Positions 1-21,740 are shown, counted from the stretch's first letter. The stretch: DNA of 64,000 nucleotides from an uncultured Planctomycetia bacterium (GCA_964536865.1 CAZHYN010000002.1:64608-128607); one strand, 5' to 3'. A program made the numbers and translations. The notes: generated from the letters alone by a model not told the origin.

Positions 1-964
1 TTCCCAAGAATTTTTCACAAACCCAAATGTTAGTTAAGGTATGCAAGGTAATTTGAGATGTAAGAAATTCTCCTCCTAAGAAAGCCATGTAAGGTATAAG
101 ATGATCGGCAAGATGTCTATCACAAGCGGCTCCACTTTCTATTTCTTCTTTAAGTTTTGCTACTGCTTGGTAAGCTACTTTCTCTGCTGATTTACCTCTT
201 TCTCCCAAACTATCACTAAAGAGGATAGTGTTACTAAAATAAGCACAGAGGTAAATTTCGGAGCCAGGAGAGAAAGTATCAGCGTAAAAGAATCTCTCCT
301 CAATCTCTAAGTTAGGGTAACTTTCTTTCAACAACTCCCTAGCTTGGTAGAGTTGTCTTTGAGCTACATTTTTCTCCTTAAGAGAAGAGGAAGCAATACT
401 TGTTATAGATACCTTAAGAAAGGGGCCTCTCTGGGTAAGATTAATGCCTCTTAAGTCACTTTTTTTTACTCTTAAAGAAACTCCCCCTCCTCCTTTAGGA
501 TAGTATCCTCTCCTCATTACCTGGAGATGAGCGTTTATCCTTAGAAGAGGAAATACCACTTTAGGATAGAAATCTACAGGAGGAGCCCACCTCCCCGCTG
601 TCCCTCCTCCTACTTTTAAGGTTACTTCTTTATTTAAGATTACAACCGGTAAAAGAATTGCTTGAATAATTAACCCAATAGAAGCAGCTGTCTCTGTTTT
701 TAAAAAGATAGAGGAAGCCTTAACTTCTGAAGAAGGAAGAAAATGAATTCTCTGAGAACCAAGAGAAGCTCCCTGACAGGAAGCAGCGAATATTTTCTGG
801 AAAGCTTGGATTACATACAGATGTTGAGTTGCTAATCCAGGGTTTTTTCTTTTTTTTCTTATATTAAATATCTCTACTTCCTCCCCTAAGATAGTAGAAA
901 GTCCTAAAGCTGTCCTTAAAATCTGACCTCCTCCCTCTAGATAAGAACCATCTATAGAAACCAT
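1..964 (-). CDS. rtcA: RNA 3'-terminal phosphate cyclase RtcA; C-terminus truncated by the window edge. The ORF is not in the supplied track because it runs off the edge.
   Basis: Reverse translation from ATG at 964-962 gives MVSIDGSYLEGGGQILRTALGLSTILGEEVEIFNIRKKRKNPGLATQHL..., matching the RtcA N-terminal signature (GGGQILRTALxLS, PGL..QHL). The start overlaps the stop of the upstream ORF. Confidence 0.8.
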   Translation of the reverse strand, partial: MVSIDGSYLEGGGQILRTALGLSTILGEEVEIFNIRKKRKNPGLATQHLYVIQAFQKIFAASCQGASLGSQRIHFLPSSEVKASSIFLKTETAASIGLIIQAILLPVVILNKEVTLKVGGGTAGRWAPPVDFYPKVVFPLLRINAHLQVMRRGYYPKGGGGVSLRVKKSDLRGINLTQRGPFLKVSITSIASSSLKEKNVAQRQLYQARELLKESYPNLEIEERFFYADTFSPGSEIYLCAYFSNTILFSDSLGERGKSAEKVAYQAVAKLKEEIESGAACDRHLADHLIPYMAFLGGEFLTSQITLHTLTNIWVCEKFLG

Positions 965-1896
965 TTTTTCTTTTCTTTGATGTACTCTCTTATTATCTTA
1001 GCGTGGTCAAACACTATTTTCTTAGGCAAACTATCCAATCTAAAAACTTGAGCATTTTTAGCATCAGAAGAAGAAAGAAGATGACCTCTTCCTTTCCCTA
1101 CGAACACTACCGAAACAGTATGAAATCGAGGATCCCGGTTAGGATTAGAATAAACTTTAAACTGCTTAAAGTTTACAAAATCTAAATTCGTCTCCTCCTT
1201 CACTTCTCTTTTTACCGCTTCTTCCACACTCTCGCCATAATCTACGAACCCTCCAGGGAGAGCCCAACCAAAAGGAGGATTACTTCTCTCTATCATCACA
1301 ATTCCTTGGGCGAATTCTACTATCCCATCTACAGTGAGAAAGGGGCCTTGGCATACCTTCTTACTGATATAATCTAAGTACCCCAAAAGATTTTTTTTGA
1401 AAACTGACAATGCTTGAAGGGAAGTGAGAGCAAAAACAATCTTTTTAAGAGACGGCTTTTCGATTTCTCTTAAGTAACGGAACACTTCCTGAGCCATTAT
1501 CTTAGCAGAGAGAGAATAGGAAAGTTTACCTGTGCCACACCCTAAAGCACAGAAAGAAAGAGAATGAATACGTTTGCTCTGAGCTAAGCGTAAAGTAGCA
1601 GCAGTGGCTTTTCTAATTACTTCTTCGTTAGTTTTAAAATCTAACCCCATAGTTACTGCATGAATCACATACTTAGCCTTCAGTGCGCCAGCCTTAGTAA
1701 TAATAGCCTCCCCCTTTTTTGCGGGAGCGTGTTTTTGAGCCTCTCTTTCAATTATTTCCCCACCCTTTCTTTTTATAGCCCTAGCTACTCCTCCTCCCAT
1801 AAGGAAATGAGTATTAGCAGAGTTAACTATCGCTTCGGTATTTGCCTCGGTGATATCCCTCTTAACTACCTTAATTTCCATCCCTTTTATAAGCAT
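952..1896 (-). CDS. Macro-domain (ADP-ribose/Appr-1''-p processing) fused to a C-terminal Nudix hydrolase
   Basis: N-terminus carries the macro motifs VNSANTHFLMGGGVARAI and AGALKAKYVIHAV. C-terminus carries the Nudix box GGFVDYGESVEEAVKREVKEETNL. Confidence 0.8.
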   Translation of the reverse strand: MLIKGMEIKVVKRDITEANTEAIVNSANTHFLMGGGVARAIKRKGGEIIEREAQKHAPAKKGEAIITKAGALKAKYVIHAVTMGLDFKTNEEVIRKATAATLRLAQSKRIHSLSFCALGCGTGKLSYSLSAKIMAQEVFRYLREIEKPSLKKIVFALTSLQALSVFKKNLLGYLDYISKKVCQGPFLTVDGIVEFAQGIVMIERSNPPFGWALPGGFVDYGESVEEAVKREVKEETNLDFVNFKQFKVYSNPNRDPRFHTVSVVFVGKGRGHLLSSSDAKNAQVFRLDSLPKKIVFDHAKIIREYIKEKKKWFL

Positions 1897-3328
1897 TCTT
1901 CCTCCCTTCCAGATAAGCCTTAGCTACTCGGTAAGCTTCCCTTTTACTCTTCACATTACCCAAGGCTTGCTCCTCCTTAATCTTAGCAAGTATCTCTCCC
2001 ACCAAGGGAGAGGGAGCCAAATTAAACCTTCTCATTATATCAAATCCATCCACTATCTTAGATAGAGGTTTCTTTTTTCTTTCATTAAAGTAAAAATCAA
2101 TAAGTTTAAACATCACTCTCTCATGGATTAATCTCTTCTTTCTGTTAGTGAGTGGCCCTCTGGTAGCCCGCCAGTCCGCTAAAGATAAAAGAATAACCGA
2201 AACTCCTTCCTCATCAGTATCTCTAAAAAATCTATAAATTGCCCTCTGGGAGGGGAAAATCTCTCCTGCTAAGTAACCTGGCCTTAAGTGCCAAAAAATC
2301 AATTTCCTAAGAACTTCTTTCTCTTTTACCGATAGTTTAATCTCTTGAGCAAACTCCTCAGCTACCTCTGCTCCTATCTTCTCATGAGTATGAAATATAG
2401 TCTTTTTACCTTTGACCCTCTTCGCAAAAGGTTTACCAATATCGTGAAGAAGACAGGCAAGTTTTAAAATGTGAATTCTCTTCCTATTTTTAGCTAACTC
2501 CTGATTAAGATAATCAACTATCTCTGAAGACTTAGTCAATCTTCGGCGGTAAAGAATTTCAAAGCGAGAAAGTGTTTGAAGAGAATGTTCCCAGACATCT
2601 AGGTGATGATATCCTCCTTGGTATACCCCGCGGGATTTCCTTATGTAAGGAATGATTTCATCGAGAATAAAGAGATCACTCATTTTTTTTATTACCGAAT
2701 AACTATAGGAGCTATCTAAAATTTTAAACAACTCTTCATTTATTCGTTCAGGAGATACTTTTTTTAATAATTCTCTGTGTTTTTTTAAAAACTTAAGGGT
2801 TTGCGTTTCTATCTGCAAGTTATACCTTGCCCATAAACTAAACGCTCTCAAGATTCTTAAAGGATCTTCTAAAATAACTTCTTCACTTACTGCTCTTATA
2901 ATTTTCTTTCTTAAATCTCTGATAGCTTCCAAGCGATCGATCACCTGAACATGAGGAAAGTGATTCACATTTAGAAGTAAGGTATTTATAGAAAAATCCC
3001 TCCTTAAAAGATCATCCTCTAAACTATCTCCCTTTAGCTGAGAAAAATCGTAGTGATAAATATTCTCTTTTTTCTTTACAATTACTCGATAAGTTCTCTC
3101 CTTTTTATCTAATACAATCCATTTGCAGTTTATCTTTCGAGAAAAAGCAACAGAAAACCTTTCAGCATCCTTTTCAACAACAAAATCAAAATCAAAATTC
3201 TCTTCTCTGTTTAAATAAAGATCTCTTAAAAAACCTCCTACTAAATACACATCTACCTTCATCTCGTTAGCTAATCTCTTTATAGATAAAAGGTAAGGAA
3301 TATTTGCTACCTTATCTTTTATTTGCAT
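1871..3328 (-). CDS. cca: CCA-adding tRNA nucleotidyltransferase / poly(A) polymerase family with HD domain
   Basis: GGFLRDLYLNRE nucleotidyltransferase motif; HD motif LLHDIGKP. Confidence 0.8.
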   Translation of the reverse strand: MQIKDKVANIPYLLSIKRLANEMKVDVYLVGGFLRDLYLNREENFDFDFVVEKDAERFSVAFSRKINCKWIVLDKKERTYRVIVKKKENIYHYDFSQLKGDSLEDDLLRRDFSINTLLLNVNHFPHVQVIDRLEAIRDLRKKIIRAVSEEVILEDPLRILRAFSLWARYNLQIETQTLKFLKKHRELLKKVSPERINEELFKILDSSYSYSVIKKMSDLFILDEIIPYIRKSRGVYQGGYHHLDVWEHSLQTLSRFEILYRRRLTKSSEIVDYLNQELAKNRKRIHILKLACLLHDIGKPFAKRVKGKKTIFHTHEKIGAEVAEEFAQEIKLSVKEKEVLRKLIFWHLRPGYLAGEIFPSQRAIYRFFRDTDEEGVSVILLSLADWRATRGPLTNRKKRLIHERVMFKLIDFYFNERKKKPLSKIVDGFDIMRRFNLAPSPLVGEILAKIKEEQALGNVKSKREAYRVAKAYLEGRKNAYKRDGN

Positions 3329-3338
3329 AAAAGGTGGG

Positions 3339-3797
3339 TTAAAAGTATACTAACTTTGGATCTAAACTCTGTAAATCTAAAATAACTAAAGAAGATTTCT
3401 CAGTAAGCCATCCACAAGCCTCTCCAGGGTTTATAAGGAGCTTATCGCCAACTTTCTCTATTTGAGGATGGTGGGTGTGACCAGATATAATTATCTGAGC
3501 CTCAACAGGGCTGAATTGATGAGTAACAGCAATCTTCTTTTCTTGAACTTCCCAAAGTAAAGGAGGCGGCTTTATCCGTCCTCCCGATTTTTTACTCAAT
3601 CCTTCTTTCTCTCCATCGTTGTTTCCAAAAACTCCTGCCCAATCACATCTTAACTCTTGGAAAGGATCTAGAGAAAAAGGAGCAATAAAATCTCCGGCAT
3701 GAAACACAAAATCAACTTCGTGTTCGTTAAATATCTTAACTGCTTCTCTAATCTTTACTAAGTTGTCATGAGTATCACTGATAATCCCTATCTTCAT
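3339..3797 (-). CDS. YfcE/MJ0936-family metallophosphoesterase
   Basis: [12 protein letters not shown]...FHAGD...GHTH calcineurin-like motifs. Confidence 0.75.
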   Translation of the reverse strand: MKIGIISDTHDNLVKIREAVKIFNEHEVDFVFHAGDFIAPFSLDPFQELRCDWAGVFGNNDGEKEGLSKKSGGRIKPPPLLWEVQEKKIAVTHQFSPVEAQIIISGHTHHPQIEKVGDKLLINPGEACGWLTEKSSLVILDLQSLDPKLVYF

Positions 3798-4192
3798 AAC
3801 CCCTGTTCTAATCTTCTAAATACTTCTTCCTCAACAAACATAGGAGAGTTAGTTCTTACTGCCAGAGCTATACTGTCTGAAGGACGAGCATCTACAATTT
3901 TGGTACCTTCTTTAGTAATTAAGAAAAGCTTAGCGTGAAAAGTACTATCCACCAACTTATCAATAACTATCTTCTCTAACCTAACTTCTAAAGCATCAAA
4001 TAAAGATTTCATCAAATCATGAGTGAGAGGTCGGGGGGGTATAAATCCACTCAATTTCATCCTTACTGCCAAAGCTTCAGTTAATCCAATTACAATAGGA
4101 AGAGTCTTTGAGCCATTCTTTTCTCTTAAAACAATTATCTGCTCTCTCTTGGCCTCATCAATAATGATTCTAGATAACTCTACCTCAATCAT
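3794..4192 (-). CDS. Bifunctional nuclease (DUF151/BFN) family protein
   Basis: Size and conserved IVIGLTEA...DARPSD block typical of the BFN domain. Confidence 0.6.
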
Positions 4193-4650
4193 TTCACTTT
4201 TTTACTTAAAATATCTCTTAATTCTCTTAAAAATTGGTTTACATCTTTAAACTGACGATACACAGAAGCAAATCTTACATAAGCTACATCATCGATCTGG
4301 GAAAGTCTTTCCATCACCAGTTCTCCTATATAGCGAGAATCTACTTCCTGATCAAATTTCTTCTGAATGTCTTTTTCTATATCGGAAACAAGTTTATCTA
4401 ATCTCTCCACACTTATAGGTCTTTTCTGACAGGCCTTGATTAATCCCTCAAGGATCTTCTGACGGTTAAAAGGTTCACGACGCCCATCTTTTTTTACTAC
4501 CATGAGAGGAATCTTCTCTACATACTCATAGGTAGTAAACCTCCTCCCACAATTTAAGCATTCTCTCCTTCTCCTTATAGAAGCTCCCTCTTGAGTCTCC
4601 CGAGAATCAACTACTTTATCCTCATTATGGTTACAGTAAGGGCACCTCAT
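4189..4650 (-). CDS. nrdR: Transcriptional repressor NrdR
   Basis: [18 protein letters not shown]...[12 protein letters not shown] zinc ribbon followed by an ATP-cone. Confidence 0.9.
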
Positions 4651-16260: not shown

Positions 16261-16984
16261 CTTCCTCCAATCTCTTTATCTCTTCTTTTATACGCTCAAT
16301 CCTCGCCTGAGGGGGAGGGTGACTACTTAAGAAAACAAAGGGATGAATTCCACCTTTTTTTTCTAACTTCTCCAACAGAGTAATTGCTCCTTGAGGATTA
16401 AATCCTGCTTTGTAGGCATACTTTACTCCTAAAGAGTCAGCCAAAAATTCATCCTGACGAGAATACCCTAAGGATACTATATTATAAATTACCTTTAATC
16501 CCTTCTTAATATCTATATACTCAGGAGTTCTTAGGGCTAAACTTAAGATTAGCTGTACTCCTAAGGAAGCCTGCAATCTCTTTAAACCATGACGAGCGCA
16601 GATATGAGCTACCTCATGCCCTATACAAAAGGCAAGTTCATCTCTTCCTACCTCATCTATGAGGCCTCGATTTATGAACACATACCCTCCAGGAAGAGCA
16701 AAAGCATTAATCTCTTCTTCGTCAAGGATATAAAAATGATACTGTAGAGAGTTTCTATCACAAACCTTAGTTATCCTCTCCCCTATCTTTTGAAGATAGC
16801 GGTTAAGATTTTTATCTTTTACCGACCTCTTACTGCTTAATATCTGAAAAGCTAAATTTTTCCCCAATAGAATTTCTGTATTTTCATCTATGAAGTAGAA
16901 TTCTCTCCTCTGAGTAGCAGGATTATAGATAGTTACACAACCATAAAGGAAAACCATCAAAGGAAATAAAGCAATCTGTCTCAT
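16253..16984 (-). CDS. M48-family zinc metallopeptidase, probable lipoprotein
   Basis: HEVAHICARH HExxH motif; N-terminal signal with Cys. Confidence 0.7.
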   Translation of the reverse strand: MRQIALFPLMVFLYGCVTIYNPATQRREFYFIDENTEILLGKNLAFQILSSKRSVKDKNLNRYLQKIGERITKVCDRNSLQYHFYILDEEEINAFALPGGYVFINRGLIDEVGRDELAFCIGHEVAHICARHGLKRLQASLGVQLILSLALRTPEYIDIKKGLKVIYNIVSLGYSRQDEFLADSLGVKYAYKAGFNPQGAITLLEKLEKKGGIHPFVFLSSHPPPQARIERIKEEIKRLEEGG

Positions 16985-17745
16985 TAATGGATTATCCTTA
17001 TCTGGTAAGGAATACTCACAATGATTTCTGGACCGTTATATTCTCTTATTCTACCAGTAACTTCTACTATCTTTCCTTTATAAAAAGTTAAAGGGTCTAC
17101 TCCTTTCTCTTTAAAATACTTCCAACTATCTTTAAATATCACTACAGTAAAATCCTTACGCCAATCTTCGCCAAAGTTTAAAAAGATACATTTCTGTGAC
17201 TGATAAGTATTTCTAACCTTTCCCTTCACAGTGCGTATCTCTCCTATAAATTTATGAGCGTCTTCGGCACTCACTACTTCGTAGGAGCCCCAAAGTCCCT
17301 TTCTATTTTGACGTGCTTTTTTCTGAAGGCTAATAAATAAATTTACATACTTAACATTAGGAGGACGAGTATAGATAACTGCATAACCTTCTTCTAATAA
17401 TTTAGCGTTAATGAATACTCCATCTAAAAATACGTAACCTAGGAGCCTCCCGTATCTATCCTTTTTCTCTACATCAAACTCTACTCGCACTCTCTTTCCT
17501 TCTACTAAACTTCGATTAAACTCCTTTGCTTCCAAGGCAAAAGGTTGAGGATTAAATACCCACCTTCTGCCTTCATTTTGTCTAACTTCTGGGGTATCTA
17601 TACCAATGTAACGTAAAACTTCTCCATTCTCTAACCTTACTGTGTCTCCATCAATTACCTCTACAACTTTTATTTGAGAAAAATCTAAAGGAGATGCACA
17701 GGCACAAAAGAAAAAGAGAAGAAATAGGAGGAGGCGAGGTATCAC
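16984..17745 (-). CDS. Secreted thermonuclease (SNase-like)
   Basis: Signal peptide; VVEVIDGDTVRL...IGIDTPE...YGRLLGYVF SNase motifs. Confidence 0.7.
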   Translation of the reverse strand: MIPRLLLFLLFFFCACASPLDFSQIKVVEVIDGDTVRLENGEVLRYIGIDTPEVRQNEGRRWVFNPQPFALEAKEFNRSLVEGKRVRVEFDVEKKDRYGRLLGYVFLDGVFINAKLLEEGYAVIYTRPPNVKYVNLFISLQKKARQNRKGLWGSYEVVSAEDAHKFIGEIRTVKGKVRNTYQSQKCIFLNFGEDWRKDFTVVIFKDSWKYFKEKGVDPLTFYKGKIVEVTGRIREYNGPEIIVSIPYQIRIIH

Positions 17746-20572: not shown

Positions 20573-21157
20573 TTAATTGTGATAACCATTCAAGAACAAC
20601 CTTACAACTTTAATGTCTTTCTGTAATAAGGGTCTCATCCTTATATTATAAGTAACTACAGCAGGATGGTAAAGAGGTATAATCTTCACAGAGTCAAAAG
20701 GGGAAGTAAACACCATCCCATGGATTTTATTTATTTTTTGAACTTTATTCTCTAAACCAAACTTCTTCATTATATAAAAGGTAGCAAAATTACCCAAACA
20801 ACAGATTACCATAGGTTTAATTATCTCAATCTGTCTATCAAGGTAAGGAGTGCAAGCAATTATCTCCTCTTCCTTAGGATTACGATTCTGGGGAGGTCGA
20901 CATTTCAGAATATTAGTTATATATATCTCTTCTCTCTTGATCCCTATAGTATTTAGAAGCTCATCTAAAATCTTTCCTGCTGCTCCACAGAAAGGGGTCC
21001 CTTTCTCATCTTCCTTTGCTCCAGGAGCCTCTCCTACAAACATTATTTTAGCTTCCCAGCAGCCTCCTCCTACTACAGGGTTTTTCCTTTCTCTCCACAA
21101 ATTACATTTTCTGCAATATAAAATTTCTTCCTCTATCTTTTTAAGAACACCTTTCAT
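20573..21157 (-). CDS. Uracil-DNA glycosylase, family 4 (Fe-S type)
   Basis: CRKCNL...GEAPGAKEDEKGTPFCGAAGKIL signature. Confidence 0.85.
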   Translation of the reverse strand: MKGVLKKIEEEILYCRKCNLWRERKNPVVGGGCWEAKIMFVGEAPGAKEDEKGTPFCGAAGKILDELLNTIGIKREEIYITNILKCRPPQNRNPKEEEIIACTPYLDRQIEIIKPMVICCLGNFATFYIMKKFGLENKVQKINKIHGMVFTSPFDSVKIIPLYHPAVVTYNIRMRPLLQKDIKVVRLFLNGYHN

Positions 21158-21158
21158 T

Positions 21159-21740
21159 TTATAAGCCTAATTCTTCACTAATACCTTTCATTGCTTCTAA
21201 ACAAATGCTGATAAATTCACTAAGGGTAATTCCCAATTCTTGAGAACTCCTTATCTGTTCTCTGTTTGCCCCTCGGGCAAAACTCTTCTCTTTAAACCTA
21301 TTAAGAACAAATTTAACATCTAAAGCTCTAAGAGACTTTTCTGGATGCATTAAAGCAGAAGCTACAATCAATCCTGTTAAAGGGTCAACAGCATATAATG
21401 CCTTGGCCATCTTCGTTTTCCTTTCAATATGCCCGGGATGAGATTTTATTGCCTCAATCACCTCTTCATTAATACCTCGCTCTTTCAGAATCTCAGCAGT
21501 AACAAACCCATGTTGAGAAAAATCATCTTTTGTCTCCTCGTAATCTAAATCATGCAAAAGGCCAGCCAGGCCCCATAAATCCTGATCTTCTCCAAATTCT
21601 TTAGCTAATCTCCTCATACAAGCCTCAACAGCTAAACTATGTTTAATTAAATTCTTATTCTTTAGCCTTTCTTCTAACAACTTTAAGGCTTCTTTTCTGA
21701 ACATCTTTACTGCTCCAGAATCTGCACAATATCTACCCAC
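21159..21740 (-). CDS. HD-domain phosphohydrolase
   Basis: HSLAV...LLHDLDY HD motif. The track start is GTG; an internal ATG (MFRKEAL) may be the real start. Confidence 0.75.
   Translation of the reverse strand: MGRYCADSGAVKMFRKEALKLLEERLKNKNLIKHSLAVEACMRRLAKEFGEDQDLWGLAGLLHDLDYEETKDDFSQHGFVTAEILKERGINEEVIEAIKSHPGHIERKTKMAKALYAVDPLTGLIVASALMHPEKSLRALDVKFVLNRFKEKSFARGANREQIRSSQELGITLSEFISICLEAMKGISEELGL

Follow-up and report, generated by a model that had tools for sequence, protein, structure and literature searches.

A conserved gene order hints at a role in tRNA or RNA-end maintenance for RtcA without RtcB in Candidatus Omnitrophota

The 64-kb window considered here, i.e. the whole stretch of DNA that was analysed (64,000 nt; CAZHYN010000002.1:64608-128607), belongs to Candidatus Omnitrophota according to its named homologues and carries, at its low-coordinate end and on the minus strand, a run of four genes in the order yfcE, class II tRNA nucleotidyltransferase with an HD domain, macro+Nudix fusion and rtcA. 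This gene order hints at a role of the RNA 3'-terminal phosphate cyclase RtcA in tRNA or RNA-end maintenance in which RtcB takes no part, and is no proof of it. Comparison with related loci suggests that the order of the four genes goes far back within the phylum, with the nucleotidyltransferase and the fusion as a stable core and with yfcE and rtcA as accessories that were repeatedly lost and tend to stay together. The most likely reading, to which we give a probability of ca. 0.45, is that the four genes form a co-transcribed stretch and represent a loose ancestral neighbourhood for the upkeep of tRNA and RNA 3' ends. Overall, this is a modest and partly supported comparative-genomics lead, based on the order of genes in a region of strong synteny, and not a defined repair system. 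The features concerned are as follows.

2..964, minus strand: rtcA, RNA 3'-terminal phosphate cyclase (TIGR03399, PF01137, PF05189), cut by the window start
952..1896, minus strand: macro+Nudix fusion, 314 aa (PF01661 at residues 24-134, PF00293 at residues 191-304)
1381..1896, minus strand: macro half of the fusion, residues 1-172 (PF01661)
952..1380, minus strand: Nudix half of the fusion, residues 173-314 plus stop codon (PF00293)
1871..3328, minus strand: predicted class II tRNA nucleotidyltransferase, CC- or CCA-adding, with a C-terminal HD domain, 485 aa (PF01743, PF12627, PF01966)
3339..3797, minus strand: YfcE/MJ0936-type metallophosphodiesterase, 152 aa (TIGR00040, PF12850)
3794..4192, minus strand: context, bifunctional nuclease (BFN) domain gene (PF02577, 122.8 bits)
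4189..4650, minus strand: context, nrdR

The original prediction had described this region as an RNA-end repair module, and its identification of RtcA, of the macro/Nudix fusion and of a YfcE-type phosphoesterase is borne out by the domain models. The overlap that it reported between rtcA and the fusion is also real, the rtcA ATG lying 13 nt inside the end of the fusion gene. The fusion itself starts 26 nt inside the nucleotidyltransferase gene, which is separated from yfcE by a 10-nt gap, and both the yfcE/BFN and the BFN/nrdR junctions are 4-nt overlaps. The minus strand carries nearly all of the window's genes, and with almost every junction across it as tight as that of rtcA and the fusion, their overlap does not set these two genes apart. 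Promoter- and terminator-like sites occur in the window at chance frequency, and neither tRNA genes nor Rfam families were found in it.

Conservation and loss within the four-gene order

As far as gene order goes, the fusion and rtcA are truly linked. A sister contig (L001/L005) with a fusion 93% identical to that of the window served as a proxy for the sequence beyond the window edge; there, rtcA is followed by recG, rsmD, coaD, yceD, rpmF, plsX and fab genes. Loci whose RtcA shares 50% identity or more with that of this sister genome were inspected (the window, L001/L005, L086, L087/L088, L089, L090, L091, L175 and L092). In all nine, the fusion is directly upstream of rtcA, the two genes overlapping by up to 59 nt or being up to 48 nt apart. 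The rtcA-fusion adjacency is thus conserved in relatives, and this in three flank contexts. In the first, the order is nucleotidyltransferase-fusion-RtcA-RecG. In the second (L091 and L175), a transglutaminase and two ABC genes split the nucleotidyltransferase gene from the fusion, none splits the fusion from rtcA, and a DUF362 gene comes next. The third (L092) has no nucleotidyltransferase gene and reads x-fusion-RtcA-SAM_HAT. A SAM_HAT gene (PF01887) together with a gene for a PP-loop ATP_bind_3 protein (TilS/TtcA-like) was observed after rtcA in both of the latter contexts, immediately in L092 (12454..13038) and after two genes in L091 and L175.

Where RtcA is more distant (43-47% identity), it is encoded one gene away from the fusion in L030 and 5-6 kb away in L018, L094 and L174. 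No fusion occurs within 7 kb of rtcA in L173, yet rtcA is located there downstream of the nucleotidyltransferase gene, and in most of the Omnitrophota loci examined that have a distant RtcA, rtcA lies within ~6 kb of the fusion or of the nucleotidyltransferase gene. A neighbour-joining tree built on the nucleotidyltransferase and the fusion places loci with RtcA in among sister loci without it, a pattern for which the simplest explanation is an ancestral fusion-rtcA pair followed by several independent losses of rtcA. That rtcA would be a lineage-specific insertion was considered and dropped, the RtcA-side loci and the tree showing an older pair with repeated loss.

The stable part of the order was assessed by probing 80 species-level fusion-bearing loci with the window proteins, 69 of which could be evaluated for the nucleotidyltransferase gene and 63 for rtcA. 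The nucleotidyltransferase gene is directly upstream of the fusion in 33 of the 69 (31 retrieved by script, plus L075 and L083, which have shorter N-termini and were added by hand), and in 18 more it is found further upstream, at up to 8 kb, giving 51/69 in total.

Between the BFN and nucleotidyltransferase genes, yfcE is patchily present among the loci and tends to stay where rtcA stays. The script-derived contingency table for the two genes (4 and 4 in the first row, 4 and 25 in the second) gives a Fisher p of 0.049 for loci that are not phylogenetically independent; correcting L091 and L175 by hand (6 and 4; 3 and 25) makes the association stronger, kinship being again ignored. A comparable arrangement occurs, among the matches listed, in one archaeal clade (L102 4193..7053; L121, L134, L159 and L172), in which a YfcE/MJ0936-type gene, a middle gene and rtcA are co-directional. 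The middle gene encodes a conserved protein of 280-407 aa with no Pfam or NCBIfam match; the RtcAs of this clade are 68-93% identical to each other, and a divergent GINS gene is found upstream in both annotated loci (L102 and L159). At the level of gene order, this unrelated clade shows an independent linkage of RtcA with a metallophosphoesterase.

Domain content of the encoded proteins

RtcA is visible over 321 of its ~335 aa, ca. 14 C-terminal residues lying beyond the window start. Despite this cut, it scores 320 bits against the TIGR03399 equivalog (cut-off 250) and also matches PF01137 and PF05189. The nucleotidylated His is present in 'ITLHTLTNIW', as are all columns that are invariant in 27 Omnitrophota RtcAs (E10/EGGGQ, R17, R36, R39, Q47, H48 and H308). 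The full-length orthologue of the sister locus L001 (335 aa) is 92% identical to the window copy, and RtcA is common in Omnitrophota, where more than 100 protein clusters show 43-61% identity to that full-length protein.

The window RtcA is a clear orthologue of the E. coli enzyme (~35% identity); in contrast to the E. coli rtcBA operon with its regulator RtcR, it ends a housekeeping run, after a Nudix-containing gene, and stands without RtcB. A tblastn search with E. coli RtcB returned no match at E<=1e-3 in the window and 84 related loci, and a probe with the sigma-54 activator RtcR of E. coli returned none in the same set; the RtcB probe detects the Thermus, Pyrococcus and human RtcBs at E<=1e-29. 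A metagenome scan with an RtcA alignment yielded, among the matches listed, mostly distant RtcAs (36-47% identity), many of them archaeal, and RtcB was found within 6 kb of rtcA in none of 80 such further loci. The original prediction held that RtcA is usually paired with RtcB, which does not apply in these lineages: with no RtcB in the window, the 84 related loci or the 80 further ones, an orphan rtcA is normal there, and the window locus is therefore not exceptional in missing this partner. Having neither ligase nor regulator, the four-gene stretch is not a self-contained Rtc-type repair operon.

The nucleotidyltransferase combines a PolyA_pol head (PF01743), an RNA-binding domain (PF12627) and an HD domain (PF01966), and the class II head motifs VGGFLRD, RRDF and EDPLR can be read in its translation. 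All NCBIfam equivalogs are matched below their cut-offs (TIGR02692 at best, with 139 bits vs 439). Its best solved relatives, the structures 3wfo-3wfs, which we take to be those of the Aquifex aeolicus CC-adding enzyme, align end-to-end over residues 27-471 including the HDIGKP motif (E 2.8e-52). Both proteins have a short loop before the RRD motif of the head domain, even shorter in the window protein than in the 3wfo enzyme, hence the label 'CC- or CCA-adding' used here. A short loop at this position has been proposed as a hallmark of CC-adding enzymes in a review that mentions the 3wfo-3wfs structures (PMC3925840). The window enzyme may thus add only CC, an activity that is predicted here, unlike that of the 3wfo enzyme, and that would call for a separate A-adding enzyme elsewhere in the genome; no such A-adding paralogue occurs in the 64-kb window. 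The 'CCA-adding enzyme' of the original prediction is accordingly kept as a class II tRNA nucleotidyltransferase, with CCA as opposed to CC addition not established.

The YfcE-type protein matches TIGR00040 with 102 bits, above the curated cut-off of 56, as well as PF12850, and its best solved relative is MJ0936 (E 1.5e-27). It is therefore a member of the family of MJ0936 and E. coli YfcE, from which it differs in that a role at RNA ends is suggested here by its context. To our knowledge, no physiological substrate has been described for the YfcE/MJ0936 family.

Both halves of the fusion match their families clearly, with 95.6 bits for the macro half against PF01661 (cut-off 22) and 69.5 bits for the Nudix half against PF00293. 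An AlphaFold 2 model of the whole protein has a mean predicted local distance difference test score (pLDDT) of 91.9, and each half matches single-domain structures in Foldseek, none of which covers both (query template modelling (TM) score <= 0.51); on function, the model and these matches bring nothing further than the sequence searches. The closest solved structures of the macro half are TTHA0132 (2dx6; E 1e-23, Foldseek TM 0.93) and macroH2A1.1. It shares with these and with the other stand-alone macro domains, such as YmdB/MacroD, the fold and the ADP-ribose-binding motifs, which are all intact in the window copy (NSAN, MGGGV and ALGCGTG, i.e. N28, GGG34-36 and GCGTG119-123), and differs in being joined to a Nudix domain by a conserved linker. 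The Nudix box of the window fusion, GGFVDYGESVEEAVKREVKEETNL, follows the GX5EX7REUXEEXGU pattern (G215-GFVDYGESVEEAVKREVKEETNL) with Asn replacing the last Gly. The closest solved structure of this half is 2yyh, an Aquifex Nudix protein whose function is listed as undetermined (E 2.8e-33, 48% identity). Its best named matches, of the ADP-ribose-type branch, are NadM-Nudix (Synechocystis slr0787, Francisella; 2qjo, 2qjt; E 2.7e-10, 40 bits vs a cut-off of 397) and NrtR; these are weak (E 1e-8 to 1e-10) and far below cut-offs, and the partner domain is a macro domain here instead of an adenylyltransferase or a DNA-binding domain.

The two halves have not been conserved alike. Among 90 homologues, the Nudix box is intact in all, with R230, E231, E234 and E235 invariant. 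In the macro half, 63 homologues retain Asn28, GGG34-36 and the second Gly-rich loop; of the remaining ones, four are truncated by contig ends. Macro motifs have decayed repeatedly, in about a quarter of homologues, by deletion of the GGG loop or replacement of the Asn. Examples of decay are seen in L090 (5109..6014), L091 (5115..6059) and ca. 20 more loci among L005-L084, in which the linker and the whole Nudix half are conserved. Four of the nine RtcA-linked fusions are concerned, L090 and L091 having lost both loops and L175 and L092 the Asn. The helix AKIMAQEVF that ends the macro half is conserved throughout the 90 homologues, with some positions substituted in distant members. Judging from this pattern, what remains of the macro half may serve a structural or regulatory purpose. 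Since the Nudix half is always intact while the macro half has decayed in 4/9 RtcA-linked copies, the conserved partner of rtcA is the Nudix half on a macro-derived scaffold, and not the macro active site.

Taken together with what is known of these families, the neighbourhood could operate as follows. RtcA would turn 3'- or 2'-phosphate ends into 2',3'-cyclic phosphates, which the HD domain and/or the YfcE-type metallophosphoesterase would open and whose phosphate they would remove, before the nucleotidyltransferase rebuilds CC(A). Precedents exist for both candidate activities, as the HD domain of E. coli Cca has 2',3'-cyclic phosphodiesterase, 2'-nucleotidase and phosphatase activities, and, in Clostridium thermocellum, cyclic-phosphate ends are healed by a binuclear metallophosphoesterase, the phosphatase module of Pnkp. 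The fusion would be chiefly a Nudix pyrophosphatase for ADP-ribose-type nucleotides. Macro domains hydrolyse ADP-ribose-1''-phosphate and O-acetyl-ADP-ribose; where intact, as in the window, the macro half might first free ADP-ribose from such a conjugate or from a mono-ADP-ribosylated group, the Nudix half then splitting it to AMP and ribose-5-phosphate.

Background synteny and alternative explanations

The four genes are embedded in an extended string of housekeeping genes (pur genes, glyA, nrdR, BFN ... recG, fab genes), the order of which is shared across the phylum. One relative, with a fusion 65% identical to that of the window, has this string over more than 20 genes (purL to aconitase) but lacks rtcA and yfcE. 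Where the upstream flank is long enough, nearly all loci show the order nrdR-BFN-(yfcE)-nucleotidyltransferase, and glyA is linked to nrdR almost as widely, some loci missing the dCMP deaminase gene that otherwise lies between them. The BFN gene (PF02577), itself preceded by nrdR, is an almost invariant upstream neighbour of the nucleotidyltransferase gene across Omnitrophota (window 3794..4192; nearly all of L005-L084). Within the same string, the window also encodes a 253-aa protein with an SNase domain and an OB-fold (tRNA_anti-codon) domain (16984..17745), in the vicinity of an HD-domain protein (21159..21740) and of a glycosylase of the UDG family (20573..21157). Many contigs with the typical Omnitrophota gene string (L006, L008, L009 and others) are labelled 'uncultured Planctomycetia/Planctomycetales', 'Endomicrobia', 'Clostridia' or 'Aenigmatarchaeota', which are probably taxonomic mislabels of bins.

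Because neighbours with unrelated functions (glyA, dCMP deaminase, nrdR, BFN) have kept their order as well, glyA, nrdR and BFN being even better conserved than the four genes, adjacency alone is weak evidence, and several observations weigh against a 3'-end upkeep neighbourhood. Seen from the fusion side, rtcA is directly downstream in only 1 of the 63 evaluable species loci and within 8 kb in 3. On the RtcA side, few loci were sampled and these are skewed towards relatives of the window, and the yfcE/rtcA statistic ignores phylogeny, with ca. 4 independent lineages in which both genes are present. The ADP-ribose-type substrate of the Nudix half is putative, as 2yyh has no assigned function and all named NCBIfam matches fall far below their cut-offs. 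Most of the linkage could be accounted for by an ancestral gene order that is slowly eroding.

In the main rival, the neighbours would be unrelated housekeeping genes in a synteny relic, with no pathway in common, from which yfcE and rtcA were lost at random, and the fusion would only dispose of free ADP-ribose or NAD by-products. Such a relic is consistent with the very strong conservation of order among functionally unrelated neighbours of the string, with the tightness of all window junctions and with the 60/63 fusion loci that have no rtcA within 8 kb. The string is, moreover, rich in nucleotide-metabolism genes (pur, rpiB, glyA, dCMP deaminase, nrdR), and the substrate of RpiB, ribose-5-phosphate, is a product of ADP-ribose pyrophosphatase (ADPRase). 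Random loss accords less well with the survival of the fusion-rtcA pair behind a three-gene insertion (L091, L175) and between wholly different flanks (L092), or with the co-retention of yfcE and rtcA and the independent archaeal linkage of YfcE, a third gene and RtcA. We regard a mere relic as a serious but rather unlikely explanation, and retain the loose 3'-end upkeep neighbourhood as the preferred one.

A tighter association can also be envisaged, in which the (macro-)Nudix protein and RtcA would form a conserved two-enzyme unit with an RtcB-independent task at RNA ends, the Nudix half for instance removing adenylate or ADP-ribose from termini that RtcA makes or cyclises; together with YfcE and the HD-nucleotidyltransferase, this would provide a ligase-free restoration of tRNA 3' ends. 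We consider this a doubtful proposal.

Adenylate proofreading, a specific form of Nudix action next to RtcA, is very doubtful. Here, the Nudix half on its macro-derived scaffold would hydrolyse dead-end adenylylated RNA termini to AMP and phosphorylated RNA. The RNA(3')pp(5')A intermediates of RtcA and 5'-adenylylated RNA (AppRNA) are ADP-ribose-like pyrophosphates, and beside rtcA it is the Nudix half and the AKIMAQEVF helix that are conserved and not the macro active site, the pair moreover persisting across flank contexts. The idea is nonetheless purely inferential, we know of no Nudix enzyme that acts on AppRNA in this way, and most species keep the fusion without rtcA, so that proofreading cannot be the main role of the fusion. 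In its favour, an ability of RtcA to adenylylate 5'-phosphate ends is cited in PMC9503650 (its reference 147).

No better is the outlook for the mechanism of the original prediction, a dedicated repair module for RNA 3' ends that are ADP-ribosylated or damaged in another way, in which the macro domain strips ADP-ribose from an RNA terminal phosphate (or handles the Appr-1''-p that arises when a 2'-phosphate is removed in the manner of Tpt1), the Nudix domain destroys the ADP-ribose, RtcA cyclises the end, and the phosphoesterase and the nucleotidyltransferase finish the repair. The steps make coherent chemistry, N28 and the two phosphate-binding loops are preserved in the macro half of the window, and a clade shares the adjacency. 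For phages, comparable NAD+-dependent RNA-repair neighbourhoods have been put forward (PMC9503650). Against this, RtcB is absent from the window and 84 related loci, the fusion is nearly phylum-wide in Omnitrophota irrespective of rtcA, and the macro half has decayed next to rtcA in the loci mentioned above (Asn in L175 and L092, loops in L090 and L091). Furthermore, no gene for an ADP-ribosyltransferase, Tpt1/KptA or a 2H protein was noticed among the annotated genes adjoining the cluster, no genome-wide test having been made for Tpt1/KptA, 2H/LigT or ADP-ribosyltransferases. That rtcA is invariably accompanied by the Nudix half weakens a mechanism in which the macro domain has to take ADP-ribose off RNA. 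The RNA-end repair module itself survives in part: the gene identities, the adjacency within a clade and the retention of yfcE with rtcA speak for it, while the syntenic string, the single locus out of 63 with rtcA directly downstream and the decay of the macro half speak against it.

Related pathways and significance

In the eukaryotic pathway for tRNA-splicing by-products, Tpt1 releases Appr>p, which passes through a cyclic phosphodiesterase and the Poa1 macro phosphatase to ADP-ribose and is finally taken up by a Nudix ADPRase; a macro and a Nudix domain together could perform the last two steps. The nearest concept is that of the phage NAD+-dependent RNA-repair neighbourhoods, which were proposed to associate KptA or a sirtuin with 2H, Nudix, calcineurin-like and HAD enzymes (PMC9503650) and which share with the four-gene stretch the presence of a calcineurin-like phosphoesterase. 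Unlike in either system, the macro and Nudix domains are fused in Omnitrophota, with a macro half that is degenerate in many homologues, and no Tpt1/KptA, sirtuin or 2H gene was noticed adjoining the cluster. A SIR2 gene was observed in one relative only (L092), ca. 6.5 kb downstream of the fusion. No paper describing the macro-Nudix fusion or an RtcA-macro-Nudix neighbourhood was found, the name of the architecture having been searched under hyphenated terms.

If the linkage reflects synteny only, the finding is an ordinary one. The decay of the macro half under strict conservation of the Nudix half informs on which part of the fusion carries its essential function. For the role of RtcA outside an RtcB/RtcR operon, the gene order described here offers a concrete and cheap biochemical hypothesis, namely the ligase-free healing of tRNA 3' ends or the removal of nucleotide adducts from RNA ends. 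Should the fusion and RtcA indeed act as a two-enzyme unit, orphan RtcA would gain a defined physiological role.

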